64,000 nucleotides of DNA. It comes from a phage. Numbering within the stretch: the stretch's first letter is position 1; the number at the start of each line of letters is the position of its first letter. A model generated the notes under the pieces. It saw nothing but the letters and a program-made list of their open reading frames with translations, searched no databases and was not told where the DNA came from. Positions 17,912-53,464 of this stretch are shown here, piece by piece. Location of the stretch: sequence record PZ445432.1, one strand, 5' to 3'. Made by a program: the position numbers and the translations under genes.

Positions 17912-17913
17912 AT

Positions 17914-22443: not shown

Positions 22444-22472
22444 TTGCTTTTTACTGCATATACTGGTATAAT
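22444..22472 (+). promoter_or_regulatory. sigma70-like promoter upstream of phoH
   Basis: TTGCTT, 17 nt, TATAAT. Confidence 0.5.
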
Positions 22473-22548
22473 ATATTTGTAAGTTGATAAACAAGATCTC
22501 TTTGTTGATCCTCTGTTAGAAGCGAAGTACACTATAGGAGTGTTATGT

Positions 22549-23301
22549 ATGGGAAAAGCACGTCAAAAAAGAGAGAACCGCAATGGTTCAAGAAAGCGTG
22601 GCAACAAATATGAGAATAACGTAATTCAGGCTGATTTTTCTAATGATTACGCTAACCCAGTTGCTAAATCCCTAGTAGGTAAAAACCGAGAGCAAAAATC
22701 ATATATCAATATGATCAAGAACAACACAGTGACTGTGGGTATCGGTGAGCCAGGTACAGGTAAAACCTTTATCCCGTCTGTTCTTGCAGCTCAGGAACTC
22801 GTAGACATTCACTCAGATATTGAGCAAGTGATCCTCGTACGTCCTAATGAACCTCTAGGTAAGTCTCTTGGTATGCTTCCTGGTGATCTAGCAGAAAAGC
22901 TAGAGCCTTGGTTGGAGCCAATAGCTGATGGTATGAAATGGGCCATCGGTGATCATGCCTATAGGGGATACGTCGAACGTCAGAAAATTAAATTTTTGGC
23001 TATCGAACATGCTCGTGGCAGAACTTTCAACAACTCCTATGTAATTGTCGATGAAGCTCAGAATATTTCCGTTGAGGCAATGATTTGTCTCCTAACTCGT
23101 GTAGGACAAGACTGCCGTTTAATTATCTGCGGAGATATAGCTCAGAAAGACATTAAAGGTGACTCAGGTCTAGCACTCCTTATGGAAGTCTATGAGAAAT
23201 ACGAAAATGCCCCCTTCTCAATGATCGAATTGATTGATAACGTTCGTTCTGCTGAGTCTAAAGCATTCTACGATATTTTTAAAGACATGGGGAAGGTGTA
23301 A
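22549..23301 (+). CDS. phoH: PhoH-like ATPase
   Basis: Walker A GEPGTGKTF; ATG at 22549 preceded by AGGAG (the track ORF starts at a GTG at 22540). Confidence 0.8.
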   Translation: MGKARQKRENRNGSRKRGNKYENNVIQADFSNDYANPVAKSLVGKNREQKSYINMIKNNTVTVGIGEPGTGKTFIPSVLAAQELVDIHSDIEQVILVRPNEPLGKSLGMLPGDLAEKLEPWLEPIADGMKWAIGDHAYRGYVERQKIKFLAIEHARGRTFNNSYVIVDEAQNISVEAMICLLTRVGQDCRLIICGDIAQKDIKGDSGLALLMEVYEKYENAPFSMIELIDNVRSAESKAFYDIFKDMGKV

Positions 23302-23302
23302 T

Positions 23303-23500
23303 ATGGGAGACGTTGTACATCTACACCGAAAAACTAAAATACATCGTACTTCACTGAGTGCTGCTAATATGATTACACGTAAGGAAGGGGAAGAAAGTCC
23401 TAAGACTACCCTAGCGTGGAAAATTGTAACCTCAAATCCAAATCGGCCCTTCAATTATAACGAACTAAGTACCTCAATAGATATTCTGCTGAGAACTTAA
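23303..23500 (+). CDS. hypothetical protein
   Basis: ATG preceded by GGAAGGTG, directly after the phoH stop. Confidence 0.4.
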   Translation: MGDVVHLHRKTKIHRTSLSAANMITRKEGEESPKTTLAWKIVTSNPNRPFNYNELSTSIDILLRT

Positions 23501-23644
23501 GTGGCCAAAAACTAGACTGACAACACAGAAGGCCTGGGTATGAAAGTACTCGGGCCTTTTCTATCAGAAAATTTTATTTGCCAAATGACTGAGAATAAAG
23601 TAAACTATTTCCTAAATCCTGATAACTATAAAAAGGAAAGCCAA

Positions 23645-25978
23645 ATGAGCCATCGCATTGAAAAGGTAATTAAACGTGACGGTACTGTAGAAGACTTTGC
23701 TCCTGAAAAACTCAATGGTTGGGCAGAGTATGGTTGCAAAACAGTTGATGTAAGTTGGTCTGCCATTACTATGGCTGCTCAAAAAACTCTGCCTAAAGGG
23801 GTTGTAGATTCCGACACTCTGATGGATGCGTTAATTAAAGCTGCTGAAAGTCTTATCAAAGATAATCCAGCATACGACGTGCCAGCAAAGGAATTACGTC
23901 TTGCGCAGATGCGTAAACGCCTTTATGATTCCTTTGAACCACCTTCTCTACGCTTCTTCCACGATCATATGGTTAGTGTAGGTGCATGGGAAGACATGAG
24001 TGCATGGATTACCGATGAGCAATTTGAAGCTCTGAATCAGGTTATCGACCATGATCGTGACCGTCTTTTCACTAGTGGAGGACTGAAACAATTCTTTGAT
24101 AAGTATTCCCGTCGTAACATAGCCACCGGTGAAATTTATGAAACCCCGCAGTTTGCCTACATGGGTATGGCAATGGCGATGCTATCTCAACCTAACTGGA
24201 CAATTCTCGATGCAATCGACCTATACAACGCAATGTCACTCCACAAAATCAACGTTCCTACGCCGCCACTGGTTGGTCTGCGCTCTAGTGATCGTGGATT
24301 TGCTAGTTGTTGCCTCGTTGATTCCACTGACACATTGGATTCAATCGACACAGCCGAGCACATCGTTTTTAAAATGGTCGCAGCCAGAGCGGGAATCGGG
24401 TATCATCTTGAAAGCAGATCAATTGCTGATCCGGTGCGAAATGGGGCATTCCCGCATTCCGGAAAACTGCCATATTATCGACACATTGACCGCTCAGTAA
24501 AGGCCAACACTCAGCAAACTCGTGGTGGTTCTGCTACAGTGTCTTATCCATACTTTGATCCTGAAATCATTCAGTTGATGCAGGTTAAGCAACAACGTGC
24601 TACAGACGAGAATAAAATCGATAAGATGGATTATTCTCTGAGCTTCAACAATCTTTTGTTAAAACGTTATCTTAAAAATGAAGATATTACGCTAATGTCA
24701 TACTTCTATGCTCCGGAAGTTCATGAAGCGTTTTATAGTGATGACGAGGCTAAATTTGAAGAAATCTATGTGGCAGCGGAGAAACGTGTGGCATCTCTTA
24801 CAAAGATCGACCACGAAGGAAAAACAGTTCCAGCAGCTCCTAAAGTCTCTGCAAAAGAAATCCTAGATACTTGGCTGCGTATCCGAATGGAAACAGGACG
24901 TATGTATGCCCACCACATTGGGGAATCTAATCGTCACGGTAACTTCCTTGATCCGATCCGTATGACAAACCTTTGTGTTGAAATTACTCAGCCTACACGC
25001 CCGTTCCATCATATCACGGAACTGTATAAAACGAAAGAGCAGCTTGACCAAATGAAGCCGGAGGATATTGGGGAAGTATCTCTATGTAACTTAGGTGGTG
25101 TTGTACTAGGACGCATGGAATCTCTAGCTGAGTGGGAAAAAACTTGCTACATCCTCCTGAAATTCGTTGATACAATTATTGAAATTCAGGATTATCCGTT
25201 CCCAACTATGGAATATACGGCTAAGAAACGTCGTAATGTTGGTATTGGCCTGATGAACGCAGCAGGTGCAATGGCAGCAGAAGGTCTGGCTTATGAAGGT
25301 ATTGAAGCCCGTAACTGGATTCACCGTGAGGCTGAAAAACTGTCTTACTTCCTGCATAAAGCCTCTGTACGCCTAGCTAAAGAACAGGGTGCATGTGAGT
25401 GGTTTGATCGTACTAAACCATCTAAAGGAATTCTGGTAATCGACACATACAAGAAAACTGTTGATGAGCTGGTATCCGTAGGTCTAGAAATGGATTGGGA
25501 ATCTCTGCGTGCAGATATTCTGAAATACGGTATGCGTAACTCTGTTCTGACTGCGCAGATGCCTGGAGAAAGTTCCTCTGTACTATTGGGTGTTACCAAC
25601 TCAATTGAGCCACCTCGTAGGATTGTATCTATCAAGGGTAGTGCAGTGAATAAAGTAATTGCAATTGCTCCGGGTGCAACTGATTGGGATACTCTCATGA
25701 GCTATAAACTGGCCTATGATATTGATCGCACTGAGTGGATCAAATGGAACGCCGTTTACCAAAAATTCTTGAGCCAGTCATCAAGTTTCCAGATGTATTA
25801 TGATTACTCTAAATTCGAGAATGAAATCATTCCTGGCCCAGTAGTAGTTCGTGACTTTATGACTGCGGTTAAGTATGGTATAAAGACCTGGTATTATGCT
25901 AACTTTAACACTGCGAATGGTGGAGGAGCTGGTGAAGAGGCGGCAACAGGTTGTGCATCAGGCGGTTGTCAGTTATAA
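23645..25978 (+). CDS. nrdA: ribonucleoside-diphosphate reductase, large subunit
   Basis: ATP-cone N-terminus (KVIKRDGTVEDF) and class I RNR core; start at an internal ATG with RBS (track ORF starts at 23540). Confidence 0.85.
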   Translation: MSHRIEKVIKRDGTVEDFAPEKLNGWAEYGCKTVDVSWSAITMAAQKTLPKGVVDSDTLMDALIKAAESLIKDNPAYDVPAKELRLAQMRKRLYDSFEPPSLRFFHDHMVSVGAWEDMSAWITDEQFEALNQVIDHDRDRLFTSGGLKQFFDKYSRRNIATGEIYETPQFAYMGMAMAMLSQPNWTILDAIDLYNAMSLHKINVPTPPLVGLRSSDRGFASCCLVDSTDTLDSIDTAEHIVFKMVAARAGIGYHLESRSIADPVRNGAFPHSGKLPYYRHIDRSVKANTQQTRGGSATVSYPYFDPEIIQLMQVKQQRATDENKIDKMDYSLSFNNLLLKRYLKNEDITLMSYFYAPEVHEAFYSDDEAKFEEIYVAAEKRVASLTKIDHEGKTVPAAPKVSAKEILDTWLRIRMETGRMYAHHIGESNRHGNFLDPIRMTNLCVEITQPTRPFHHITELYKTKEQLDQMKPEDIGEVSLCNLGGVVLGRMESLAEWEKTCYILLKFVDTIIEIQDYPFPTMEYTAKKRRNVGIGLMNAAGAMAAEGLAYEGIEARNWIHREAEKLSYFLHKASVRLAKEQGACEWFDRTKPSKGILVIDTYKKTVDELVSVGLEMDWESLRADILKYGMRNSVLTAQMPGESSSVLLGVTNSIEPPRRIVSIKGSAVNKVIAIAPGATDWDTLMSYKLAYDIDRTEWIKWNAVYQKFLSQSSSFQMYYDYSKFENEIIPGPVVVRDFMTAVKYGIKTWYYANFNTANGGGAGEEAATGCASGGCQL

Positions 25979-25987
25979 TAAAAACAA

Positions 25988-26010
25988 GGAGATCTTCGGG
26001 TCTCCTTTTT
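25988..26010 (+). terminator. rho-independent terminator after nrdA
   Basis: GGAGATC-TTCG-GGTCTCC hairpin followed by TTTTT. Confidence 0.6.
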
Positions 26011-26024
26011 CTTTGAAATTTTAC

Positions 26025-26053
26025 TTGCTAATCGCTACCAGATTTGCTATAAT
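26025..26053 (+). promoter_or_regulatory. sigma70-like promoter
   Basis: TTGCTA, 17 nt, TATAAT. Confidence 0.5.
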
Positions 26054-26079
26054 ATCTCCATTAGTTAAGGAGATTAGTT

Positions 26080-26595
26080 TTGATAACACAAGATGAATTA
26101 AAAAGGATTCTGGAGTATAATCCAGATGAAGGAACATTTACTTGGTTAAATAACCAGGAAGTACACAATAAAGTAAGGGGACTACCTGCTGGCTGTTTAA
26201 AACCCCACTCAGTAGATCCTAACCGAAAAGACTTAGTAATACAAATCAAGGGTAAGAAGTATCCCGCACAAAATATTGCTTTCCTGTACATGACAGGAAA
26301 CTTACCTAAAGTTATGGTTGACCATATAGATGGAGATTCACTAAACTATAAGTGGGCTAATCTAAGAGAAGCAGACTGGCAGTTAAATAGTCAAAATAGA
26401 AAAACTAGTAAAAACAATATATTGGGTACTAAGAATATTCGGAAGAAAGGGTCTGGATTTCAAGTTAGAAAATCCATTAACGGAAAAGAATATGTGAAAA
26501 CTCTCCCAACTCTAGAAGAGGCGATAGAGTATCGAGATTCTTTAATCCTCTCTATAACCAAAGATCCAACACTACTTAGAAACACAGATAAATAG
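26080..26595 (+). CDS. HNH homing endonuclease (between nrdA and nrdB)
   Basis: VDHIDGDSLNYKWANLREADWQLNSQN HNH motif; TTG start preceded by AAGGAG. Confidence 0.75.
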   Translation: MITQDELKRILEYNPDEGTFTWLNNQEVHNKVRGLPAGCLKPHSVDPNRKDLVIQIKGKKYPAQNIAFLYMTGNLPKVMVDHIDGDSLNYKWANLREADWQLNSQNRKTSKNNILGTKNIRKKGSGFQVRKSINGKEYVKTLPTLEEAIEYRDSLILSITKDPTLLRNTDK

Positions 26596-26603
26596 GAGAA
26601 CTA

Positions 26604-27749
26604 ATGACAACTTTACTTAACTTAAACTGGGATCATACCAATAAAGATCTATTTCTCGGTGATTCTCTTGGTATTGCAGATTATGTACGAGTAGCCCATC
26701 CAGAGCTGGAAAGGCTGGCGTTATTAGCTCGCTCTCAATTCTGGACTGAAACTGAAATCAGTCTGGAAGCAGATAAGAAACAATGGCCTAATCTCCCACG
26801 AGAAATTCAGGAAATTACCCTCCTGAATTTAGCATGGCAGACTCAAACTGATTCCTTTATCAGTCGAGCGCCTGAAGCAGCTATTATGCCACTTGTAAGT
26901 CGTCCAGAATTGGAAGGTATGCTAAAGCAGTGGAGCTACTTCGAAGACCTGCATAGTCGCGCCTATAGCAATATTATTCGTAATGTGCTGACTGATCCAG
27001 CAGAATTTATTGATTCTGTAACCAAAAACCAGGAAGCATTCGCACGCATCGCTGATTCTGTTGAACTGTTCGATGAACTGTATCAGTTAGGTCAGTATTT
27101 CCTCGCAGTACGCGATCATCGTGGTGACAATACATATCCAGAAACTGAGTTCCCTGAAGTTAAACGTGAAACTCAGGCTAAACTATTAGACGCTTACTTT
27201 GCGATCTATGGTCTGGAAGCAATGCAGTTTTACGCATCCTTTGCATGTACTTTTGCTCTAGCAGAGAACGATATTCTGCAAGGTATTGCTAAGAACCTGC
27301 AATTAATCGCTAAAGATGAGGCTCTGCACACCCAGATGTCTAAAGCAATCATCCAGATTATGTTCCAGCAGTTTGACAAAGATCTGGTAGATGAAGCAGT
27401 GGCTAAAGCACCAGCACAGCTCCTGAAAACTCTGAAAACTGAAATTGAATGGGGTCATTTCATTTTCAAAGGTCGTAGTCTGATTGGCTTGAATGCAGAA
27501 CTTCTAGAAGAATATCTGTACTTTGTGGGGCGTAATGCATTTATGCACATCGGTGTAGAATGGCCTAGTCATTTACCAGTAATCACTAAGAACCCCATTC
27601 CGTGGATCATGAACTGGCTGGATACCACTTCTTTACAGCCTGCTCCACAAGAAATCCAGATTGGTGCAGCCTACCGTGTAGGTCAGGTAACTGAGACCTC
27701 TACTGATACTCTGAAAGATCTGGGTAATGAATTTGGAGATTTCTTATGA
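26604..27749 (+). CDS. nrdB: ribonucleoside-diphosphate reductase, small subunit
   Basis: 381-aa ORF with ferritin-like E..H segments, immediately following nrdA and the HNH ORF. Confidence 0.8.
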   Translation: MTTLLNLNWDHTNKDLFLGDSLGIADYVRVAHPELERLALLARSQFWTETEISLEADKKQWPNLPREIQEITLLNLAWQTQTDSFISRAPEAAIMPLVSRPELEGMLKQWSYFEDLHSRAYSNIIRNVLTDPAEFIDSVTKNQEAFARIADSVELFDELYQLGQYFLAVRDHRGDNTYPETEFPEVKRETQAKLLDAYFAIYGLEAMQFYASFACTFALAENDILQGIAKNLQLIAKDEALHTQMSKAIIQIMFQQFDKDLVDEAVAKAPAQLLKTLKTEIEWGHFIFKGRSLIGLNAELLEEYLYFVGRNAFMHIGVEWPSHLPVITKNPIPWIMNWLDTTSLQPAPQEIQIGAAYRVGQVTETSTDTLKDLGNEFGDFL

Positions 27750-28276
27750 TTACAGCAATGTATGCAGTTGGGCCGAATGGAGAGTTCGGCCTCCGAGGTA
27801 AACTTCCCTGGGGTTCCTTCAAAGAAGAGTTAGATGCTTTCTATTCTCAACTGGACGTGTTGAATCCAGATAACATCATCATTGGTGCGGGTACTTATTT
27901 AGCACTTCCAGAAGTTGTTAGGCAACGTATGATTGGAGAATCCGACCTCTTTATTCGTGCTGACCGACCTCTGGCTGATAGCATCAAAGAAACTTACACT
28001 GCCATATCAAGGATAGGTGATACACTACCTACTTTCCTAAAAGATCAGCAAACAGTAGTTCTAGGCGGAGCTAATCTTCTCCTAGAAATGTATCAGCATG
28101 GGCATATAGAAAGTGCTTTTGTATCTACAATCTTTAGTGAGCAGAAGCTAGAGGCAGATACATACCTAGATAGTATGATACTGGATTATAACTATGAATC
28201 CACTCGATTAGTCTATGCAGTTGGCGCAAACAGTGATAACAGCCTGCGATTTGTACAGGAATTGGTTACTTATTAA
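27746..28276 (+). CDS. dihydrofolate reductase
   Basis: N-terminal MYAVGPNGEFG..GKLPW DHFR-like motif; overlaps nrdB stop and thyA start. Confidence 0.7.
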   Translation: MITAMYAVGPNGEFGLRGKLPWGSFKEELDAFYSQLDVLNPDNIIIGAGTYLALPEVVRQRMIGESDLFIRADRPLADSIKETYTAISRIGDTLPTFLKDQQTVVLGGANLLLEMYQHGHIESAFVSTIFSEQKLEADTYLDSMILDYNYESTRLVYAVGANSDNSLRFVQELVTY

Positions 28277-29115
28277 TGCAACAATACTTAAAAATTTTGA
28301 CAGATGTAATTTTACTAGGTGAACCCCGTAATGACCGTACAGGAACAGGCACAGTTTCAATTTTTGATTCCTATGCTAAGTTCGATCTACGTGAGGGATT
28401 CCCTGCCGTAACCACTAAACGTCTAGCCTGGAAATCAGTAGTAGGAGAACTTTTATGGTTCTTGTCTGGTTCCACAAATCTTCATGATCTACGTGTATTC
28501 ACATTTGGGCGTGACGAAGGACAGTGGACCATCTGGACTCCAAATTATGAAGACCAAGCTATAAGTATGGGGTATGATAAGGGTAATCTAGGACCGGTAT
28601 ATGGTAAACAGTGGCGTAACTTTGGTGGGCGAGATCAGATTCTAGAACTTATTGAAGGACTCAAGAATAATCCTCATGGCCGCAGACATCTAGTTTCTGC
28701 ATGGAACGTAGCTGAACTTGATAAAATGGCATTACCGCCCTGCCACTACGGCTTCCAGTGCTATGTAAGTAACGATGGATACCTAGATCTTAAATGGACA
28801 CAACGTTCTGTAGATTGTTTCCTCGGTTTACCCTTCAATATTGCTAGTTATGCTTTATTAACGCATATATTAGCAAAACTGACAGGATTAAAACCTCGTT
28901 ATCTCATCTTTAGTGGTGGAGATACTCATATCTATAATGACCACATGGAACAGGTAGAAGAACAGGTAAAACGCAAGCCACGCCCTCTACCAACTCTAGT
29001 AATGCCAGAGTTTGTAGATCTTTACGATTTATTAGAAAATAATACGGCAGCTTGGTCCTTCCAGCTTGAAGGATATGATCCGCATCCGGCTCTTAAAGCT
29101 AAAATGTCTTCCTAA
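28276..29115 (+). CDS. thyA: thymidylate synthase
   Basis: Active-site PPCHYGFQCYV and a DRTGTGT-type N-terminal motif. Confidence 0.9.
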   Translation: MQQYLKILTDVILLGEPRNDRTGTGTVSIFDSYAKFDLREGFPAVTTKRLAWKSVVGELLWFLSGSTNLHDLRVFTFGRDEGQWTIWTPNYEDQAISMGYDKGNLGPVYGKQWRNFGGRDQILELIEGLKNNPHGRRHLVSAWNVAELDKMALPPCHYGFQCYVSNDGYLDLKWTQRSVDCFLGLPFNIASYALLTHILAKLTGLKPRYLIFSGGDTHIYNDHMEQVEEQVKRKPRPLPTLVMPEFVDLYDLLENNTAAWSFQLEGYDPHPALKAKMSS

Positions 29116-29121
29116 CTCAAA

Positions 29122-29145
29122 TAGCCCTTCGGGGCTATTATATTT
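29122..29145 (+). terminator. rho-independent terminator after thyA
   Basis: TAGCCC-TTCG-GGGCTA hairpin followed by a T-rich tract. Confidence 0.6.
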
Positions 29146-29154
29146 AAATTTCAT

Positions 29155-29183
29155 TTGCTTATTTAGTGAAATTTAAATATAAT
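29155..29183 (+). promoter_or_regulatory. sigma70-like promoter
   Basis: TTGCTT, 17 nt, TATAAT. Confidence 0.5.
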
Positions 29184-29208
29184 ATATTTTATAAATTGGA
29201 GGTATATA

Positions 29209-29966: not shown

Positions 29967-29986
29967 TAAGTAAATTAAAAATTCAA

Positions 29987-30015
29987 TTGCTTAAAGCCCT
30001 CTAATTTAGTATAAT
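29987..30015 (+). promoter_or_regulatory. sigma70-like promoter
   Basis: TTGCTT, 17 nt, TATAAT. Confidence 0.5.
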
Positions 30016-30042
30016 ATTCGTATTGAAAGTGAGGAGGGCTTT

Positions 30043-30327: not shown

Positions 30328-30773
30328 AGATTACTGAATTTAAAGGTACTTATAGTTTTTTATCTAACTTTTATTTATCACCAATTACTTTCGAATATCT
30401 AAATGAGATATGGCATGCTGATACTGTAGAACATGCTTTTCAGGCTATGAAATCCGACCAAAAAGATGATGTAGCTCATGTGCTGCGCTCCCTAAATGCA
30501 GGAGTTGCCAAACGTAGAGGACGTAAATTAACTCTGCGCTCTGACTGGGATAAGGTAAAAGATGATGTAATGTTAGAGCTTTTACGGTTAAAGTTTGCAA
30601 TCCCTGATTTGAGGGACAAACTGTTAGCAACAAAAAATGCAACTTTGATCGAAGGAAATACCTGGGGAGATACATACTGGGGTGTTTGCCGAGGCATCGG
30701 GGATAATACTTTAGGAGTTCTTTTGATGCAGGTAAGGTCTGAAATTAAAAGAAGTTTACAGTTAATAAATTAA
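30324..30773 (+). CDS. NADAR-domain (YbiA/DUF1768-like) protein
   Basis: FLSNFY, HAFQAMK, GN.WGD..WG and LG..LM..R blocks as in YbiA/NADAR proteins. Confidence 0.65.
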   Translation: MKITEFKGTYSFLSNFYLSPITFEYLNEIWHADTVEHAFQAMKSDQKDDVAHVLRSLNAGVAKRRGRKLTLRSDWDKVKDDVMLELLRLKFAIPDLRDKLLATKNATLIEGNTWGDTYWGVCRGIGDNTLGVLLMQVRSEIKRSLQLIN

Positions 30774-30781
30774 AAATTCAT

Positions 30782-30810
30782 TTGCTAAACGCTTCAAATT
30801 CTAGTATAAT
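30782..30810 (+). promoter_or_regulatory. sigma70-like promoter
   Basis: TTGCTA, 17 nt, TATAAT. Confidence 0.5.
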
Positions 30811-30848
30811 ATACTTCATAAATTGATAAACAAAAAGGAAAATAAATA

Positions 30849-31364: not shown

Positions 31365-31405
31365 TAGATAGGAGGGGCGAAAGCCCCTCATATTTTGGAG
31401 AAACT

Positions 31406-31642: not shown

Positions 31643-31670
31643 TAGTTTTCTACACAATAAAGGATAAGTT

Positions 31671-32372
31671 ATGAAAGTAAAACCATTTGGTATGCTAGAT
31701 ATTGAATCTCTAGGAACTCCGGGGGATTGTGGTACTACTCATATCGCAATGCCTTCTTTCGCTTTTGTGGCTATGCATGGGATTGATAAAGACCCTGACT
31801 TAGTATTTGCTACTTTGGATGTGCAGGATCAGCTTAATTCTGGTGCCAAAGTTACAGCATCTACTCTAGCATTCTGGATGGATCAAGCTAAAAATAGCCC
31901 GTCTGCTATTCACATTATGGAAGCTATGAAGGAACGTAATCCAAAACTGATTGCCTTCCAAAATGGTAAACATCATTGCACTACTAAATTAGGCTCAAAC
32001 TATGCTGCCTTCTCTATGGCTCAAAATATTATGGAGTTGGCTCTAGGCGAAAATGCTTTGTATTATGGCAATGGCCCAGAGTTTGATATGACTATCTACT
32101 CTGCAAACACGTTCCATGCTGGAACCAATGAAGAGGTAGTTCCGTGGAAATTCTGGAATTTAGGCAATGTTCGATCTCTTCGTAATCTCTGGATGCAAGC
32201 GGGTTATAGTTACAAAGATCTAGAGGCTGAAGGTATTAGCTGGGCAAAAGCTAAAATGGAGAAGATGGACACCATTCGTTATGGGATCTATCCGGTTAAG
32301 CACGACCCAGCATTCGATGCCCTAGTTGAGGGCTATTGTGTTGCAGCTATGATCGAAAAAATGAAAATTTGA
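31671..32372 (+). CDS. hypothetical protein
   Basis: 233-aa ORF; an N-terminal LDIES segment resembles a DEDD exonuclease motif but this is unsupported. Confidence 0.45.
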   Translation: MKVKPFGMLDIESLGTPGDCGTTHIAMPSFAFVAMHGIDKDPDLVFATLDVQDQLNSGAKVTASTLAFWMDQAKNSPSAIHIMEAMKERNPKLIAFQNGKHHCTTKLGSNYAAFSMAQNIMELALGENALYYGNGPEFDMTIYSANTFHAGTNEEVVPWKFWNLGNVRSLRNLWMQAGYSYKDLEAEGISWAKAKMEKMDTIRYGIYPVKHDPAFDALVEGYCVAAMIEKMKI

Positions 32373-32443
32373 TTTGCTTCCGGCTCCAAAATTCTGTATA
32401 ATATATTTATAAATTTGAGAAAACAATAAAAGGAAAAACAAAT

Positions 32444-32626: not shown

Positions 32627-32679
32627 TAGATCAAATTTAAACAAATTCAAATCTCAAACTTCATATAAGGAAGCAAATA

Positions 32680-33318: not shown

Positions 33319-33760
33319 TAATTTAAAAGCTAGTAAATCGGTAGACGAAAGCCCAAGCATCTTACCTCGCAGCAGCGGTTGAAATACGAGGTTAAATAAG
33401 ACCGCTGACCATACTATAAAGTATAATCTATTGGAGATTATGTTTATTACATCAGACATTTAATCTGACACGTAAAAACAAAGCGTCGTTGATATTACCG
33501 ACACAACTTCAAAGATCAACATTTAAGTATGAAAGCTGAAAAGTTTAAAGAACTCAAACTTCTAAACTTCTAAAGCTAAAAGATGCAAAGTATTCGTTGA
33601 TGATTCAAACCCTAGATCAAAGGTACATGGCTCATAAGATATGGCCTGTGGCGCCTCTAGGCTGTTTATCGGTTTACTAGTTTCACAATTTAAAAATGTA
33701 TTTGCTAATTTATTAAGTTATCTGTATAATATATTTTTAAATTGATGAAACGAGGCTATT

Positions 33761-34594: not shown

Positions 34595-35044
34595 ATGAAG
34601 GCAGCTTTGCTTTTAGTAGCTGCCCTTACCTTCAGCTTCAATAGTCATGCGACCTACGACTCAAAGCAGATTGATTGCATTGCAAAAAATATCTACTTCG
34701 AAGCACGAGGTGAGGGCATAAAGGGAATGACGGCGATTGCACACGTTACTAAAAACCGTGTTAACTCTGGTACTTTTCCTGATTCTTACTGTAAAGTAGT
34801 ATATCAGTCTAACCAGTTCTCTTGGGTATCTAAGAGACCAAAAGTTGATAAAACTGATGAGGCTTGGAAAACCGCCAAGAATTTAGCTAGAGTGATATAC
34901 TACGTTGATTCACCACAAGATCCTACACATGGAGCGTTATACTTCCATAGTGGTAAAGATAAACCGCGCTGGACAAAGAAGTTTAAGAAAACAACTAAGA
35001 TTGAGGGACATACATTTTATAAGCCTGTTGTCACTAAAACTTAA
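34595..35044 (+). CDS. secreted cell-wall hydrolase (SleB/Hydrolase_2-like)
   Basis: Signal peptide MKAALLLVAALTFSFNSHA, then NIYFEARGEG ... AHVTKNR ... YCKVVYQ.NQFSW blocks. Confidence 0.55.
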   Translation: MKAALLLVAALTFSFNSHATYDSKQIDCIAKNIYFEARGEGIKGMTAIAHVTKNRVNSGTFPDSYCKVVYQSNQFSWVSKRPKVDKTDEAWKTAKNLARVIYYVDSPQDPTHGALYFHSGKDKPRWTKKFKKTTKIEGHTFYKPVVTKT

Positions 35045-35052
35045 AAATTTAT

Positions 35053-35081
35053 TTGCTTAAATACTTAAACTTCTGTATAAT
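35053..35081 (+). promoter_or_regulatory. sigma70-like promoter
   Basis: TTGCTT, 17 nt, TATAAT. Confidence 0.5.
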
Positions 35082-35112
35082 ACTTTCATAAATTAATGAG
35101 AGGAAGCGAAAT

Positions 35113-35283: not shown

Positions 35284-35726
35284 TGGGAGAGAATATTTTA
35301 GATGTTTTGCGTAGAGCTTTGCAGGATTCTAAGTTTAATGGTTCTGATAAAGAAGTCGCTAAAAGCTATCAGACCATAATCGGGGATCTTCAGCGTATTG
35401 ATAAAGATTTCATCACTTCTGAACAATTTGTGTCTTATCTCAAAGCTCAACTAAAAAGCATTAACCAGATGAAAGCTAAACTTCATGGTCAAGATCTTGA
35501 TAGTTATAGCTTGCAGTCCGCTCAGTATGAATACATTCTAAATAAGTGGTTGCAGGAGTATCTGCCTCCTCAGTTATCTGATACTGAGATTCGTAAATAC
35601 TTTGCAGAATTAGTTAAGCTAAACCCTGGAATTACAAAAGGTATGCTGATGAAAGCGATTAAGGAAGAATTTCCTGGGCGTTATGATGGTGGTACTGCTG
35701 CTCAGATTGCTGGCGAATTTAATTAA
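35283..35726 (+). CDS. GatB/YqeY-domain protein
   Basis: 147-aa ORF with the YqeY-like pattern (YLP..LS..E ... G..KG..M ... DG..A) next to the tRNA cluster. Confidence 0.55.
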   Translation: MGENILDVLRRALQDSKFNGSDKEVAKSYQTIIGDLQRIDKDFITSEQFVSYLKAQLKSINQMKAKLHGQDLDSYSLQSAQYEYILNKWLQEYLPPQLSDTEIRKYFAELVKLNPGITKGMLMKAIKEEFPGRYDGGTAAQIAGEFN

Positions 35727-35734
35727 AAATTTAT

Positions 35735-35763
35735 TTGCTAAATGCCTATAAATTCTGTATAAT
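35735..35763 (+). promoter_or_regulatory. sigma70-like promoter facing an ORF-free RNA region
   Basis: TTGCTA, 17 nt, TATAAT. Confidence 0.5.
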
Positions 35764-35769
35764 ATATTA

Positions 35770-36559
35770 ATAAATTAGAGAACAGCGGGCCGATTACGCT
35801 GAGTGCAGAATCCAAACCGGAGTGCATTGAATAGAGTCGGTGGGTTAGTTGTAAAACTAGTACACAGTGGGCGGCAATCCCGGTTAGTGGCTAGAACGTG
35901 TAAAATGGGGCGTCTGAAACCTCTCCCCTAAACTCTTCTCTAGTTTATAAATAGTGGGGTGTGGAAATCACTTATGTAGTAACACTGCCGATCTAGTATA
36001 AACGGTATTATCAAGCCGTAACTGGTGGAAGATGTAGGTTCGAATCCTACGATCGGTAAGAACTGGATAACTGGTGCTTTTAACGTAAAAGCTTCCGAGG
36101 TTAGTTGCGCACTGCCTAAACCACGCGGTAGTTGGTTCCAGACTAACCAACCAGTCTGCTGAATAGTTTTATTACGATTTAACTATGTCCAGGCTAAAGA
36201 AGAACTTTAGAAGGTATTCTAGGTGGTGAAGTTTTTCCTCCATATCGGAGTAGTTTTTCAAGCTACCAACAAAGTGGGAAATGCTGACATGAGAGATGTC
36301 ACTAATGGTGCACAATAGCACAGGTAATTCGCGATAACTCCTGTTGAGTAGCAGCAAAAGGCGGGAAGTCATGACCCCAAGCCTAACCGAGTCCTCAATA
36401 TACCGCAGGACATAACCACTAAGTCACCCTGACTTAAACTGGAAAATAATAGACGTTACTGTATTTTGTCTTGAAATACTTAATGAGTGAGACTTATGAC
36501 TCTCCCGGTATCGTCTGTATTTTTAAGAGTTTTTACGAGAGTTCTTAAAAATACTTAAA
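35770..36559 (+). ncRNA. ORF-free transcribed region, possible stable small RNAs
   Basis: About 800 nt with no plus-strand ORF, downstream of a consensus promoter; contains several hairpins and tRNA-like fragments. Confidence 0.3.
35987..36058 (+). tRNA. tRNA-like element (possible pseudo-tRNA)
   Basis: Acceptor stem GCCGATC/GATCGGT and T-arm GTAGG-TTCGAAT-CCTAC are intact, but no canonical D or anticodon stem could be folded by hand. Confidence 0.3.
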
Positions 36560-37680: not shown

Positions 37681-37842
37681 AAGGTAGAGGATAAGTGTGT
37701 CTCTTTGGTCACTCAGCTATGACAAATACTTTACACTATATCACATTGAAAATCAAGTGGGGATAACAATTTTGGGGTCTATCCACTTACCTGCTACCCT
37801 TAAGCATCCTGTTATTTTCCTCTAAAAAGTTAAAAAATTCAA

Positions 37843-37871
37843 TTGCTTGAATGCTAAATTCTCTGTATAAT
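37843..37871 (+). promoter_or_regulatory. sigma70-like promoter
   Basis: TTGCTT, 17 nt, TATAAT. Confidence 0.5.
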
Positions 37872-37903
37872 ATACTTATAAATTTGAGAGAGAGGAATCT
37901 AGT

Positions 37904-38422
37904 ATGACTGTTGATGAACTAACAGAACATCTCTTATCTAGAGGGTTTGATACAGATAAGTATCATTGCTGGTTAAGTCCGGAAGGATGGCTAACAGTCC
38001 CGTTGTATGACTTCTCTGGGATGTTGAGAGGCTATCAGACTTATAATCCTTCTGCTCCAAAAGGTCATGGTAAGTGCCCCTTTGAAGCTAAATATTTTAC
38101 TTATTCAACTACACAGTGTGTATGGGGATTAGAAACTCTCAATGGAGATGAAAAAGTAGTATTGATTGCTGAATCTGTATTTAAGGCAGTTGCGTTACAT
38201 AACGCTGGTTATCCAGCCCTGGCAATGTTGGGTTCTTCCCCCGGAAAAGCATTGTTAAAGCAATTGAAATTATTACCTTTTAAATTGGTAGCTGTCGGAG
38301 ATAATGATCCTGCGGGTGAAAAATTTGCTAGAAAATTAAACGGCTTTGTTTCTCCTGTAGATGTAGATGAGATGTCTACCGAAAACTTGAAAAATTTTCT
38401 TGCTATGAAGCTAAATTTCTAA
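37904..38422 (+). CDS. Toprim-like domain protein
   Basis: VVLIAESVFKAVALHNAGYPALAMLG ... VAVGDNDPAGEKFARKL resembles a TOPRIM fold. Confidence 0.45.
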   Translation: MTVDELTEHLLSRGFDTDKYHCWLSPEGWLTVPLYDFSGMLRGYQTYNPSAPKGHGKCPFEAKYFTYSTTQCVWGLETLNGDEKVVLIAESVFKAVALHNAGYPALAMLGSSPGKALLKQLKLLPFKLVAVGDNDPAGEKFARKLNGFVSPVDVDEMSTENLKNFLAMKLNF

Positions 38423-38442
38423 TATAATATATTTATAAATTC

Positions 38443-38531
38443 GGAAGAATAGCATAACGGTATTGCAGCAGATTGCTAATCTGTCGGTTTGAAATATAGC
38501 CTTGTGGGTTCGATTCCCACTTCTTCCGCCA
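38443..38531 (+). tRNA. tRNA-Ser (anticodon GCT), type II
   Basis: Acceptor GGAAGAA/TTCTTCC, 3-bp D stem, anticodon loop TTGCTAA, long variable arm, T-arm GTGGG-TTCGATT-CCCAC, encoded CCA. Confidence 0.7.
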
Positions 38532-41337: not shown

Positions 41338-41351
41338 ATTTAAGGACTATT

Positions 41352-41519
41352 ATGTTTAAACTGTTAGTAGTTATCTGGTATAGTCAATCAAATAGAGCGA
41401 ATACCTCCCACGTTATAGACTTTACTACTAAAAATGAAGCTGAAAAAGCATATGCTAATTTAATAGAACGCAATAAAGAATCTCGTAGTATAGTTTATGA
41501 AGTGACTAAACTTTATTAA
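41352..41519 (+). CDS. hypothetical protein
   Basis: ATG with RBS AAGGAC just after the tRNA; the track ORF begins earlier, inside the tRNA. Confidence 0.4.
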   Translation: MFKLLVVIWYSQSNRANTSHVIDFTTKNEAEKAYANLIERNKESRSIVYEVTKLY

Positions 41520-41527
41520 AAATTCAT

Positions 41528-41556
41528 TTGCTTTCCCTCTTATTTATTGTTATAAT
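41528..41556 (+). promoter_or_regulatory. sigma70-like promoter
   Basis: TTGCTT, 17 nt, TATAAT. Confidence 0.5.
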
Positions 41557-41586
41557 ATTTATATAAATTAATGAGAGGGAAACCAA

Positions 41587-41877
41587 ATGAAACGTTATCT
41601 TTCTGTTATGTTCCAAACCGGCGGCCAAAGATACACCTATGAATTTCCACCTTCCTGGAAAATCAGGGAAGGTGATCAAATAGTTGTGTTGACACCGCGT
41701 GAAGAATATAAAGTAGTGACGGTTAAACAAGTATTTCCAAAAGATCATGAACCAGCTATAGGCATCCGATATAAGATGATTCATGGCGTGGTTCGTCAAG
41801 TACCACGAACTGAGGTAGAAGTAGATAATACTGGAGAAACTAAATTCCATTATACTTCTTACTTAGACAGTGTGTGA
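41587..41877 (+). CDS. hypothetical protein
   Basis: 96-aa ORF directly after a promoter-leader cassette. Confidence 0.5.
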   Translation: MKRYLSVMFQTGGQRYTYEFPPSWKIREGDQIVVLTPREEYKVVTVKQVFPKDHEPAIGIRYKMIHGVVRQVPRTEVEVDNTGETKFHYTSYLDSV

Positions 41878-41892
41878 TGTAAATATTTTAAT

Positions 41893-41969: not shown

Positions 41970-42065
41970 AATCTAGGAATTAAGACTATGCGTCCAGGAA
42001 AGTTTAAAAAAGCTAGTTGGTCTAAAGAGTACAAAGAATACTTACTTAGCCTAGTAAAACGTAAT

Positions 42066-43388: not shown

Positions 43389-43405
43389 ATTCTGAAATAA
43401 TTCAT

Positions 43406-43434
43406 TTGCTAAACCTCTCTTTTCTTGCTATAAT
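43406..43434 (+). promoter_or_regulatory. sigma70-like promoter
   Basis: TTGCTA, 17 nt, TATAAT. Confidence 0.5.
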
Positions 43435-43464
43435 ATATTTATAAATTGATGAGAGAGGTTTGAA

Positions 43465-43746
43465 ATGAAAACTCGTCTAGACTGTGCTGTTCATGTTCTT
43501 GAACATGATGTTGTGGGAACCTGTATGTCTTATCACGAAGCAGGTCGTTTAATTAAAGAACGTGTGGCAGATGTATGTGGGTTGAAGATTACTGCTGAGG
43601 AAGCTGATGATCTTCTAGACCAGGCACTGGGGAAAACAGAAATATTCCTCTGCGATTCCTGCTCCTGGTGGTGTGAAGCTCACGAACATTCCTTCAACGA
43701 TTATGATGTATGCCGTGACTGTAATGAGGGGGACCATGATGAATAA
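43465..43746 (+). CDS. hypothetical Cys-rich protein
   Basis: 93-aa ORF with CDSCSWWCEAH and CRDCNEGDH segments. Confidence 0.45.
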   Translation: MKTRLDCAVHVLEHDVVGTCMSYHEAGRLIKERVADVCGLKITAEEADDLLDQALGKTEIFLCDSCSWWCEAHEHSFNDYDVCRDCNEGDHDE

Positions 43747-45480: not shown

Positions 45481-45516
45481 AGCCCAGCCTGCACTTTTGC
45501 AACTGGGCTATTTTTA
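45481..45516 (+). terminator. rho-independent terminator
   Basis: AGCCCAG ... CTGGGCT hairpin followed by ATTTTT. Confidence 0.55.
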
Positions 45517-45590
45517 TAATAAAATTTTAGTTGCTTAGATGCCCAAACTTTTGTATAATATGTTTATAGATTGAGGCAAGAGGATTAAAT

Positions 45591-49658: not shown

Positions 49659-50075
49659 ATGTTTGCAGAACTATTCACTACGATGCTGCTAGGTATCTGG
49701 AAAATAAGTCTAGTAGTATTCGTTTTAATAATAGTCTTTACTATCCTTGCACTAACTACCAGAAATATCTTATTAATAAAGATTACTCATGGACTAGAGT
49801 ATATAATTATGGGTTCATTCGGCGTTTGTAAATGCAATTGCCATAGAGATACGAAATATTGTTGGTTATGGATGGAACTAGAGAATCCTATATCCATAGC
49901 TTTGGCTGTTTCATTCGGTATGATTCTTATGGCCCTTACTCTAGCATTAATACCTTTGATGTTAGCTGGGGGAGTTACAGCGTATTTCACCCTTTTATCC
50001 CCGATACTTATGTACTCAATTTACCCAATAACTATGTATCTAGTTAGGAAAAGATTTATACATGCAGTAGATTAA
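49659..50075 (+). CDS. hypothetical multi-pass membrane protein
   Basis: 138-aa ORF with three or four hydrophobic helices; RBS AGGAGA. Confidence 0.5.
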   Translation: MFAELFTTMLLGIWKISLVVFVLIIVFTILALTTRNILLIKITHGLEYIIMGSFGVCKCNCHRDTKYCWLWMELENPISIALAVSFGMILMALTLALIPLMLAGGVTAYFTLLSPILMYSIYPITMYLVRKRFIHAVD

Positions 50076-50088
50076 GATAAAAAAGTAG

Positions 50089-50117
50089 TTGACTTTTAGC
50101 CCTAGTTATTATATAAT
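50089..50117 (+). promoter_or_regulatory. sigma70-like promoter (TTGACT -35)
   Basis: TTGACT, 17 nt, TATAAT. Confidence 0.5.
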
Positions 50118-50150
50118 ATATACATAAATTAGTTAAGAGAGGTATATATT

Positions 50151-50558: not shown

Positions 50559-50841
50559 ATTAGTATATCTATTAAAAGGTTCCACGTGTCGTCCTTGTGC
50601 TCTTTTCGAGCCAGTATTTGATAAAGTAGTCAATGAGTATAATTTGGAAGTCCATAAAGAGACTGATAATACAGAATTAATGCAGAAATTTGGCGTACGC
50701 CAAGTTCCTGTAGTAGTTCTGGCGGATCGCTTACCTAATGGTCGAGTAGAAGCTAATCATATTTTGATTGGACGTCAGCTTCGTAAAGAAACTATGCACG
50801 AAGCTATTAAAAATTTCCTGGATGATAATCCAGAAGGTTAA
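50551..50841 (+). CDS. thioredoxin/glutaredoxin-like protein
   Basis: CRPC (CxxC) motif near the N-terminus of a 96-aa ORF. Confidence 0.45.
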   Translation: MSKLVYLLKGSTCRPCALFEPVFDKVVNEYNLEVHKETDNTELMQKFGVRQVPVVVLADRLPNGRVEANHILIGRQLRKETMHEAIKNFLDDNPEG

Positions 50842-50846
50842 TAAAC

Positions 50847-50880
50847 CAAGCCTGATCTTAGCGGATCAGGCTTTTATTTT
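50847..50880 (+). terminator. rho-independent terminator
   Basis: AAGCCTGATC-TTAGCG-GATCAGGCTT hairpin followed by TTATTTT. Confidence 0.6.
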
Positions 50881-50968
50881 ACTTGCTTTTTGCTAAAAAT
50901 TTTGGTATAATACTTATATAAATTGATAAGAAGGCTATCTACGCACTACAAAAAATAGGAGTATTCCA

Positions 50969-51596: not shown

Positions 51597-51598
51597 TT

Positions 51599-52450
51599 AT
51601 GAAAAAAGAATTTAATGTACATAAAACTCTAGTAGTGCCAGATGATGCCAACTTGTTTTTCGTTGGTGATATTCATGGGTGCAACGATTTGCTAGAAGAT
51701 GCACTACAATTAGCTGGCTATAACGGCAAGAAAGATTGCGTTGTATGCGTAGGGGATTTAATTGACCGAGGCACGCAGAACCTACAAGTTTTAGCCAAAT
51801 TCCTGTATAATCCACGCTTTATCAGTGTCCGTGGTAATCATGACCAATTTATGATTGTGGGAGATTGGGCTAACTGGATGTATAACGGTGGTATGTGGGC
51901 TATGAATGAACTAGATGCAGATACCATTAAAAATATTGCCGAAGACATGGCTGAAAAAATGCCAGTATTCCTAACTGTTAAACATCGTGGCAAGAAGTAT
52001 GGTGTTGTTCACGGTGCGGTTCCCTACAGGCATAAAGGGGATAATAACATATCTAAAATCCCAAATTGGGACACTCTTATTCTGGAGGCAGAGCAGGCCA
52101 AAGGGCTTGATTTAGCAGATATTATAGACGATGCTCTATGGGATAGGGATGTGATCCAAGATGTATTTTCCCATATGTCTGAGGATGCTGACCACCCGTA
52201 TTTTCAAAGATATGCTGGACTTCCAGAAAACTTAATTAATCACATTCCTAAGGTAGAAGGAGTAGAATTCGTATTTCACGGGCATACTGGAGTTCCTTAC
52301 CCAATATTATATAAGAACCGTGTCTATCTTGATACTGGCGGTGTTTTCAACGGGCAGTTGACGGTTGCGCAGGTTAATGATGAAACTGGCAAAATCACCA
52401 CATTTACCACAGACAAAAATGATAGCTGCGGTGTACAGAGGGTTCTTTAA
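51599..52450 (+). CDS. PPP-family Ser/Thr protein phosphatase (lambda-PPase-like)
   Basis: GDIHG, GDLIDRG and GNHD metallophosphatase motifs; ATG directly after the upstream stop. Confidence 0.75.
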   Translation: MKKEFNVHKTLVVPDDANLFFVGDIHGCNDLLEDALQLAGYNGKKDCVVCVGDLIDRGTQNLQVLAKFLYNPRFISVRGNHDQFMIVGDWANWMYNGGMWAMNELDADTIKNIAEDMAEKMPVFLTVKHRGKKYGVVHGAVPYRHKGDNNISKIPNWDTLILEAEQAKGLDLADIIDDALWDRDVIQDVFSHMSEDADHPYFQRYAGLPENLINHIPKVEGVEFVFHGHTGVPYPILYKNRVYLDTGGVFNGQLTVAQVNDETGKITTFTTDKNDSCGVQRVL

Positions 52451-52737
52451 TGAATGATAGAATGAAAGAAGTACAAGAAGAGTTACGAGCAATGCGTATT
52501 GATGCCCTTCGTTGGAGGGCATTAGTTAATGCTTTCGTAAAAGGAGATACCGGAGTAATATATTCTGGAATAGCAGTCAATTTTTGTTTTAATTCTCCTG
52601 CTGAAATAGAGATAGAAACAAGGCTTACTACCTTCCTTAATGAGGTAGACCTTAAGGAAGGAGAGACTCCCGAGGAGTTTAAAACTAGAGTATTAACTAC
52701 CTGGGTTGATAATTTAATACAAAAAAGGAGTAAGTGA
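52450..52737 (+). CDS. hypothetical protein
   Basis: 95-aa ORF. Confidence 0.4.
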   Translation: MNDRMKEVQEELRAMRIDALRWRALVNAFVKGDTGVIYSGIAVNFCFNSPAEIEIETRLTTFLNEVDLKEGETPEEFKTRVLTTWVDNLIQKRSK

Positions 52738-53327
52738 TGAGGGTTAAATTCTGGTCAGACTTGCACTTAGACCACCCTGGAGCACTACGTTTCCGTCCGT
52801 GGTTTAAGAACATGAAAGAGCACGATGAGTATATTCTAGATACTTTGTCCAAGCATATTGGTAAACGAACAAAACTTATTTTGCTAGGAGATATTGCAGT
52901 AGGTCGTGAAGGTCTGGCCAAATTAAAGTCGGTTATCCACAATGTCCCTAATCAACTCATTATGGGTAATCATGATGCGGAGCGTCAAGGACTGAGTATT
53001 AGGGACTTAGCGGAAGTTTATGACGATATTCAAGCTCTAGGCAAACAGACTGGAGGTGGCAAAAAGTTTTGGCTATCTCATTGCCCTTTGCACCCCAATG
53101 AGCTTCGGGGCAAATTAAATATTCACGGACACGTACATGCTACTTCTATACGTGACCCTCGTTACATCAATGTCTCATTTGAAATGAGCAAAACTCCTAT
53201 TCCTCTAGAAGATATTGTATCAGGTAAGTTTACTAGCTATGATAGAGTAGTTAATTGTACTACTGGCGAAGTATTACAAATAGGGGAAGATGTAGCTGCT
53301 GTATTACGTGGCGATATAAATGTCTAA
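52737..53327 (+). CDS. calcineurin-like metallophosphoesterase
   Basis: SDLHLD, GD, GNHD and HGHVH motifs; ATG 6 nt after AAGGAG. Confidence 0.6.
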   Translation: MRVKFWSDLHLDHPGALRFRPWFKNMKEHDEYILDTLSKHIGKRTKLILLGDIAVGREGLAKLKSVIHNVPNQLIMGNHDAERQGLSIRDLAEVYDDIQALGKQTGGGKKFWLSHCPLHPNELRGKLNIHGHVHATSIRDPRYINVSFEMSKTPIPLEDIVSGKFTSYDRVVNCTTGEVLQIGEDVAAVLRGDINV

Positions 53328-53435
53328 GTATATAGCTGGGGCTATAATTAAACGAGTCATACAAGCAGTAGCAATACTTATAATCATTTGTATTGCTATT
53401 GGTACAGGACTAGGCATTTTAATTAAAAGTTTTAT

Positions 53436-53464
53436 TTGCTAAAATGCCTAAGTTTCTGTATAAT
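53436..53464 (+). promoter_or_regulatory. sigma70-like promoter
   Basis: TTGCTA, 17 nt, TATAAT. Confidence 0.5.

Follow-up and report, generated by a model that had tools for sequence, protein, structure and literature searches.

Early promoters of T5 and comparable elements

The early promoters of bacteriophage T5 were cloned and sequenced in the 1980s, and one of them, PN25, underlies the commercial "T5 promoter" of expression vectors. The subject of this work is a promoter-leader module that recurs along a 64,000-nucleotide stretch of phage DNA (sequence record PZ445432.1; the whole stretch is called the window hereafter). Its copies almost certainly belong to the early promoter class of a T5-like phage (Tequintavirus), which is read by the unmodified sigma-70 RNA polymerase of the host.

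In a published description, the N25 promoter combines TTGctt, a 17-bp spacer and TATAAT with an UP element and a discriminator of 6 bp, and promoter escape is governed by its AT-rich initial transcribed sequence; swapping out this sequence causes a drop of approximately 10-fold in productive synthesis (PMC12464699). The discriminator ATATT is present in all known T5 early promoters and is the main difference between early and late ones (Klimuk et al. 2020, PMC7472727). Repeated early promoters are also found in T4-type phages, in which they form the promoter-early stem-loop (PeSL) cassettes (Arbiol et al. 2010, PMC2839356; Comeau et al. 2014, PMC4122927).

The module of the window shares with the T5 early promoters (Bujard laboratory collection; AY543070) the architecture from -52 to +17, the genome positions, the orientation and the downstream genes. 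It differs in belonging to another Tequintavirus isolate and in having, after a few copies, genes that are absent from T5; otherwise nothing substantial separates both sets. A 20-kb stretch of the window showed 100% identity with Escherichia phage HildyBeyeler (Bas33, MZ501074.1), which is classified into Demerecviridae, Tequintavirus (T5 group). As a whole, the window aligns to positions 32483-71666 and approximately 76686-101523 of the MZ501074 record. Its G+C content is about 39%, and the coding strand flips near position 22400.

Number, orientation and anatomy of the copies

Copies are named here by the first T of the -35 hexamer, and positions within them are given relative to +1, which was set from the PN25 literature and assigned by register in the other 26 copies. 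A position weight matrix (PWM) covering the module and derived from its copies, scanned with spacers of 16-18 bp, identified 27 strong copies with scores of 28-74, 18 on the plus strand and nine on the minus strand; in 20 Markov-shuffled windows no score reached 0. An earlier reading of this DNA from its letters alone (the sequence-only reading) had proposed more than 20 copies, a number which these results confirm. The 12 plus-strand positions that it named all correspond to the first T of a -35 hexamer, and six more plus-strand copies were found at 32374, 33702, 38400, 45531, 50883 and 53944. The reverse-complement copies that it mentioned do exist; there are nine, at 352-20203, beyond the range 22444-53464 to which the module had been assigned.

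Simpler searches gave concordant results. TTGCT-N18-TATAAT with at most one mismatch had 23 matches against 3.9 expected, and none of 100 shuffles reached 23; the upstream 15-mer AAAATTCATTTGCTA, with up to three mismatches, had 24 matches against 7.0 expected. All 27 copies are co-directed with the local genes, diverging from approximately 22400. A generic sigma-70 scan of positions 22000-41999 yielded 49 sites against 51 expected. Since this is the chance level, only the extended matrix picks out these promoters.

From 5' to 3', the module consists of an A/T-rich block, TTGCTW, a 17-bp spacer, TATAAT, the discriminator ATATTT, ATAAATT starting at +1, and a purine run with the consensus (G/A)(A/T)(T/G)GAGAGG. 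The conserved block extends for about 70 bp, from -52 to +17, and takes up the greater part of every gap between genes. Most copies have their -35 element 2-47 bp past the stop codon of the preceding gene. The repeat previously described as a module of about 60 bp is therefore real, although it is longer and includes an additional 6-bp element, ATATTT, between TATAAT and ATAAATT.

The information content is high at -46 to -30, -12 to -6 and +1 to +7, and moderate in the purine run. Immediately 5' of the -35 element, the UP-like columns AAAAATTnAT hold 0.65-1.58 bits each. The last bases of the spacer are also informative, whereas its first half has practically no information. TATAAT is present in the 27 copies and TTGCT in 24 of them (TTGGC, TTGCA and TTGAC in the others), and the spacer is of 17 bp in 25 copies and of 18 bp in two. 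An exact-pattern scan of IMG/VR provided a wider set of 330 unique and 109 non-redundant cassettes, with matches solely in T5-like contigs. In the discriminator, A at -6 was found in 21 of the 22 seed copies and in 95% of the 109 cassettes; in the latter, the bases from +1 to +7 are conserved in 71-97% and those from +9 to +17 are purines in 81-89%. The leader string ATAAATT(G/A)ATGAGAGG is exact in four copies of the window and occurs at 10 places with up to three mismatches. One of these 10, a leader-like match at 61799-61814 (minus strand), was discarded as a chance occurrence, as there is no promoter upstream. In Rfam searches of the window only tRNAs were identified, and no family matched the leader.

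Correspondence with T5 promoters

When the window was aligned to T5, all 27 copies coincided with 75-bp features annotated as promoters in the T5 record AY543070. Thirteen of them match named T5 promoters: P31A, P31B, PK28a, PN26, PN25, PH207, PD/E33, P16-17, P15a, P15b, P11, PF30 and Ppol, the last being the name given by Klimuk et al. to the copy located before pol. The copies are also positionally conserved across the relatives of T5. The interpretation of the repeats as promoters followed by a leader is thus supported, every copy being the positional orthologue of a T5 promoter. It is also already known, because the T5 GenBank record annotates every copy.

The copy 13179(-) is base-for-base the published PN25, including its initial transcribed sequence ATAAATTTGAGAGAGGAGTT (primer IM103, PMC4447248; T5 feature P-N25). 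For this copy, the sequence being identical, initiation by Escherichia coli sigma-70 polymerase at the predicted +1, with early kinetics, is likely from the literature on PN25. The engineered cassette of PMC9303389 shares with it the -35 and -10 elements, the spacer and the initial transcribed sequence, and carries an engineered discriminator, a downstream linker and the first codons of the downstream gene.

Applied to the T5 genome, the matrix recovered 30 of the 44 annotated promoters, PF30, which the T5 record marks solely by its -10 element, and one unannotated site. The promoters that were missed (P12, PK28b, PH22, PD/E20, nrdD) have a -35 of the TTGACA type and unrelated downstream sequence. 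The matrix from -52 to +17 thus recovers this promoter class cleanly. As it does so where a generic scan remains at chance, it could be used to annotate promoters in those T5-like records lacking them, HildyBeyeler included. It is also of use in correcting the starts of genes, and in the window it brought to light one gene missing from the annotation (see below).

The 27 copies are listed below; positions are those of the window.

299..368, minus strand: early promoter cassette, +1 at 316, 18-bp spacer; PWM 52.8; orthologue of T5 P31B
400..469, minus strand: early promoter cassette, +1 at 417, -35 TTGGCA, falling within the end of the helicase gene; PWM 48.3; orthologue of T5 P31A
4880..4949, minus strand: early promoter cassette, +1 at 4897, 18-bp spacer; PWM 43.3; 145-nt leader to the DNA polymerase gene; aligns with the T5-annotated promoter upstream of pol
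9438..9507, minus strand: early promoter cassette, +1 at 9455; PWM 68.1; orthologue of T5 PK28a; predicted to drive ligase subunit B (ATG at +25)
10885..10954, minus strand: early promoter cassette, +1 at 10902; PWM 61.0; exact leader ATAAATTAATGAGAGG; terminator-like hairpin adjoining upstream
12101..12170, minus strand: early promoter cassette, +1 at 12118; PWM 56.1; orthologue of T5 PN26 (before D3)
13127..13196, minus strand: early promoter cassette identical to T5 PN25, copy 13179(-), +1 at 13144; PWM 68.3
16768..16837, minus strand: early promoter cassette, +1 at 16785, -35 TTGCAT; PWM 45.0; 590-nt leader before the large primase / origin-binding gene
20151..20220, minus strand: early promoter cassette, +1 at 20168; PWM 58.7; upstream terminator overlapping
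22427..22496, plus strand: early promoter cassette, +1 at 22479; PWM 55.4; first plus-strand copy, at the transcription divergence; PhoH-like gene after a 70-nt leader
26008..26077, plus strand: early promoter cassette, +1 at 26060; PWM 51.3; precedes a homing endonuclease gene; adjoined by a terminator hairpin at 25986-26007
29138..29207, plus strand: early promoter cassette, +1 at about 29190-29191; PWM 41.0
29970..30039, plus strand: early promoter cassette, +1 at 30022; PWM 52.4
30765..30834, plus strand: early promoter cassette, +1 at about 30817-30818; PWM 58.0; orthologue of T5 PH207
32357..32426, plus strand: early promoter cassette, +1 at 32409; PWM 65.4
33685..33754, plus strand: early promoter cassette, +1 at 33737; PWM 62.7; precedes an intein-containing gene
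35036..35105, plus strand: early promoter cassette, +1 at 35088; PWM 69.6; orthologue of T5 PD/E33; exact leader motif
35718..35787, plus strand: early promoter cassette, +1 at 35770; PWM 68.2; orthologue of T5 P16-17; leader without GAGAGG
37826..37895, plus strand: early promoter cassette, +1 at 37878; PWM 70.8; orthologue of T5 P15a
38383..38452, plus strand: early promoter cassette, +1 at 38435; PWM 58.0; orthologue of T5 P15b; tRNA-Ser from +9, ATAAATT present, Shine-Dalgarno motif absent
41511..41580, plus strand: early promoter cassette, +1 at 41563; PWM 65.8; orthologue of T5 P11; exact leader motif
43389..43458, plus strand: early promoter cassette, +1 at 43441; PWM 65.3
45514..45583, plus strand: early promoter cassette, +1 at 45566; PWM 63.2
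50072..50141, plus strand: early promoter cassette, +1 at 50124, -35 TTGACT; PWM 28.1, the weakest of the 27
50866..50935, plus strand: early promoter cassette, +1 at 50918; PWM 58.8; upstream terminator overlapping; 112-nt leader to a homing endonuclease gene; most similar to copy 20203(-)
53419..53488, plus strand: early promoter cassette, +1 at 53471; PWM 66.0; orthologue of T5 PF30; exact leader motif
53927..53996, plus strand: early promoter cassette, +1 at 53979; PWM 74.1; leader ATG at 53987, likely true start at 54005

Apart from these copies, a perfect TTGACA-17 bp-TATAAT site without the cassette leader was observed at 22306-22278 (minus strand), 5' of the anaerobic ribonucleotide reductase gene. 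It lies in the divergent region of about 22300-22480, opposite the first plus-strand cassette, and is apparently one of the non-cassette promoters annotated in T5, a correspondence based on gene context and not on alignment.

Roles of the sub-elements

The roles of the different parts of the module may be deduced from what has been published about T5 promoters, PN25 among them. According to the anatomy of N25 (PMC12464699), what had been called a leader corresponds to the initial transcribed sequence, and +1 to the A that opens ATAAATT. The A/T-rich stretch between about -52 and -38 would act as an UP-like element, and TTGCTW, the 17-bp spacer and the perfect TATAAT would give a very tight binding of the polymerase. 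The ATATTT discriminator would mark the early class, and a transcript opening with the A/T-rich ATAAATT and then purines would favour the escape of the polymerase from so tightly bound a promoter. Where a gene is immediately downstream, with its start codon at about +25, the G-rich end of the purine run (GAGAGG) would double as Shine-Dalgarno sequence. The functional positions would be fixed by selection, the copies not being recent derivatives of a mobile element.

In the 109 cassettes, ATAAATT is kept with or without an immediate open reading frame (ORF). In the window, it is present and GAGAGG absent at the 38435 (tRNA-Ser) and 35770 (RNAX-like) copies. The retention of ATAAATT in copies preceding tRNA, RNAX or long leaders suggests that it is a feature acting at the transcription level. 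By contrast, the G content from +9 to +17 in the 109 cassettes was 0.41 when a start codon is located at +19 to +31 and 0.26 otherwise; this higher value in short leaders suggests that the G-rich end acts in translation, as Shine-Dalgarno sequence.

The proposal that GAGAGG doubles as ribosome-binding site (RBS) must accordingly be restricted. It fits by geometry about 16 of the 27 copies, whose start codon lies at +20 to +28 and is preceded by a motif of the GAGG/GGAG type (AGGA in one) at +9 to +16. Copies with long leaders fall outside it, and so do those driving RNAs, for example the one before tRNA-Ser (38435) and the one before the RNAX-like region (35770). As regards the latter, the orthologous P16-17 drives in T5 the stable RNA "RNAX" and then tRNA-Arg. 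The HildyBeyeler annotation gives for 35770-36634 three small hypothetical proteins (0080-0082), and an unannotated tRNA-like gene was called at 35986-36059 by both ARAGORN and Rfam (39 bits).

An in-frame ATG within the leader had also been said to over-extend some ORFs. An ATG at +9 occurs in seven of the 27 copies, and the statement is true for the one at 53987, the other six being out of frame. At 53987, the mechanically predicted ORF begins at +9, whereas the T5.032 homologue begins at the downstream ATG 54005. Among the 64 short-leader cassettes of the 109 non-redundant ones, 15 have the +9 ATG, with three of these in frame, as expected by chance. Directly 3' of the 53944 promoter, at 54005-54283 (plus strand), there is a 92-codon ORF 95% identical to T5.032, for which MZ501074 has no annotated coding sequence (record gap 91450-91799).

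Several points weigh against the above interpretation. In the work of Klimuk et al., primer-extension products were obtained for 11 of the 19 promoters tested in vivo, so that some copies may be weak in infected cells, and the searchable literature yielded no map of transcription start sites over the whole T5 genome. Transcription from the copies in the window is a prediction, in which the +1 of 26 of the 27 is placed by register. Finally, in copies that do not use it as a Shine-Dalgarno sequence, the purine run still has a purine fraction of 0.81; the run would therefore not serve translation alone, and the split of roles within it is one that we infer.

Alternative explanations

The conservation of the discriminator and the initial transcribed sequence could also be due to their being mainly a class-specific handle: a phage protein (such as gpT5.026 or the early-shutoff function D5), recognising these elements or their effect on the polymerase, would shut off the whole early set at once. 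This agrees with ATATT being the main early/late difference in T5 and with the weakening by gpT5.026 of the contact between polymerase and discriminator (Klimuk et al. 2020), as well as with the TTGACA-type -35 and unrelated downstream sequence of the T5 promoters outside the cassette class (P12, PK28b, PH22, PD/E20, nrdD). However, gpT5.026 has a mild effect in vitro and its loss leaves timing unchanged (Klimuk et al. 2020), and a factor-independent role of the initial transcribed sequence in escape has already been demonstrated (PMC12464699). We consider this explanation unlikely, and it would supplement the promoter function, not replace it. Much less credible still, and practically discarded by us, is that the repeats are a mobile or recently duplicated element, alike by common descent and not by function. 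Copies 20203(-) and 50883(+) do share 63% of their variable positions, together with an overlapping terminator. Nevertheless, the mean identity at variable positions is 0.34 over 300 pairs, which we read, without a control of random pairs, as near chance for A/T-rich DNA. This value argues that the copies are alike through selection on function and not through recent copying. Furthermore, conservation is restricted to positions of known promoter function, neither terminal repeats nor target duplications flank the copies, and these occupy conserved positions across T5 relatives.

The sequence-only reading had suggested that the cassette is portable and may mediate recombination between gene modules, and in T4-type phages the PeSL cassettes offer a precedent for elements whose exchange would shuffle the intervening genes. 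Breakpoints were taken as BLAST alignment ends against T5 and 120 fragments of related phages, a fragmentary sample that makes the negative results given here weak ones. Against T5, a breakpoint lies at the cassette edge, at -47 to -45 or +2 to +27, in seven of the 27 copies, and the extra genes 0043, 0067, 0070, 0123 and the homing endonuclease 0147, absent from T5, are flush against a cassette. Moreover, in the relatives the spacer is retained but followed by other DNA downstream in 55 cassettes, and the upstream DNA is different in 29. However, breakpoints per kb amounted to 5.4 in cassettes, 6.1 in other intergenic regions and 2.4 in genes. The proportion of junctions bearing breakpoints against T5 was 12/27 with a cassette and 28/99 without (Fisher p = 0.16), and 18/27 and 60/99 (Fisher p = 0.66) when all loci were considered. 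The spacer of one window copy joined to the downstream sequence of another was found in none of the 330 cassettes, and the five insertions inspected had a cassette at one side only, with no remnant of it at the far junction. In addition, uninterrupted conserved stretches are short, with randomised variable positions, and the adjacent stem-loop that defines PeSL (a terminator-like hairpin ending within -85 to -35) is present in five of the 27 copies. Breakpoint density, Fisher tests, chimera search and inspected insertions thus give no support to the suggestion, and a second role of the cassettes as PeSL-type recombination modules seems to us improbable.

The early promoters of the T5 type described here nonetheless resemble PeSL in being repeated strong sigma-70 promoters with an A/T-rich upstream block, dense among small genes of unknown function, and in the fusion of some copies to a terminator. 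They differ from PeSL in having the stem-loop in only 5/27 copies, in showing no excess of breakpoints, chimeric copies or flanking-copy deletions in the fragmentary sample of relatives, and in the conserved transcribed leader, which is a T5 feature.

The segments 20151-20245 (minus) and 50841-50935 (plus) are the most alike of the 300 pairs. Both hold an intrinsic-terminator hairpin whose T-tract merges into the A/T block of the promoter. The spacer of the T5 orthologue of copy 50883 matches that of copy 20203, which hints at a duplication or gene conversion between the two.

Promoters embedded in predicted hairpins

In T4, early read-through transcripts of e, soc and I-TevI reportedly form hairpins that hide the RBS, with a late promoter located inside; these descriptions are attributed to McPheeters et al. 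in 1986, Macdonald et al. in 1984 and Gott et al. in 1988. Two plus-strand copies of the window lie within comparable inverted repeats:

41523..41591, plus strand: inverted repeat across the 41528 promoter, fold of -29.6 kcal/mol, z = -8.9 (41518-41597)
43401..43469, plus strand: inverted repeat across the 43406 promoter, fold of -24.0 kcal/mol, z = -6.7 (43396-43475)

In the fold of the first one, the 5' arm runs from -41 to -14, taking in the -35 element and the 5' half of the spacer, and its partner from +3 to +30 contains the Shine-Dalgarno sequence together with the AUG; the apical loop between them holds the -10 element and, by the PN25 register, +1. The second repeat has the same geometry and different arms, AAACCTCTCT / AGAGAGGTTT instead of TTTCCCTCT / AGAGGGAAA, the differences between both copies being compensating; the proteins encoded downstream are unrelated. 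The accessibility of the RBS in read-through RNA was 0.07 against 0.40 in chimeric controls for 41528, and 0.02 against 0.33 for 43406. A weaker case is copy 29987, which has an inverted repeat at 29979-30052, formed by complementarity between AAAGCCCTC in the spacer and GAGGGCTTT in the leader (fold of -20.4 kcal/mol, z = -3.6). Orthologues retain the stem, and one orthologue of 43406 is changed on both arms; nevertheless, covariation is mostly uninformative because the relatives are too similar.

In the wider set, 11 of the 109 non-redundant cassettes fold at -20 kcal/mol or below, against 0.9 expected from mismatched pairs, and complementarity of 10/10 between the spacer at -29 to -20 and the leader is found in five of the 109, against 0.1 expected. 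In the window, the upstream 60 nt pair better with their own leader than with those of other copies (duplex energy, p = 0.0005). Masking of the RBS as a general property of the cassette was also considered. Before chimeric controls were applied, the RBS appeared less accessible in read-through RNA than in the RNA of the promoter itself; however, with chimeric upstream sequences the effect disappeared (0.42 vs 0.43, p = 0.96), and the signal therefore comes from a discrete minority only.

It is possible, and we propose it only tentatively, that about 5-10% of the early promoters of the T5 type are embedded in an RNA hairpin, with a complementarity that has been selected and a function that would be as follows. 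Read-through transcripts coming from upstream promoters would hide the RBS or offer a long duplex to RNase III, whereas transcripts started at the embedded promoter, in which the 5' arm is absent, would be open. Expression of the gene would consequently depend on its own promoter alone. Read-through is to be expected at 41528 and 43406, since no terminator-like hairpin is located upstream of them.

As in T4 e, soc and I-TevI, the stem predicted from sequence folds at 41528 and 43406 covers the Shine-Dalgarno sequence and the AUG, the transcription start is in the loop, and the stem is possible only in transcripts started upstream. Unlike the T4 hairpins, the upstream and internal promoters are here of the same early class, and the arrangement concerns about 5-10% of the cassettes. 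With both promoters in the same class, a temporal switch is not the obvious purpose. No prior description of such an RBS hairpin in T5 was found in the searchable literature, which does not cover older T5 papers. The hairpin minority may be a novel, if modest, detail, and if functional it would add a little to what is known of gene regulation in T5.

Other observations on the window

Approximately 5.0 kb of MZ501074 (about 71667-76685, in the tRNA region) are absent from the window. About 11 tRNA genes (Tyr, Glu, Trp, Phe, Cys, Asn, Asp, Lys, Pro, Ala and Leu-tag) are located in the missing part. The junction, at 39164-39184, is a 21-bp repeat resembling a tRNA T-arm, GGTTTTGTGGGTTCGAATCCC, which starts within tRNA-Leu(taa); ARAGORN made no call for a fused tRNA gene there. 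This absence looks like a repeat-mediated deletion, as in the T5 mutants with deletions in the tRNA region, or else like a difference of isolate or assembly.

Two unannotated stretches are associated with promoters: 16195-16785 (minus), which is the 590-nt leader from the 16820 promoter to the large primase / origin-binding gene, and a 384-nt gap at 33319-33702 (plus), 5' of the 33702 promoter. Similar gaps without annotation exist in T5. Homology with T5 ends at about +27 of the 33702 cassette (window 33761 onward), approximately one codon into the gene. In HildyBeyeler, bas33_0076 carries an intein from codon 3, and T5.084 is an intein-free protein.

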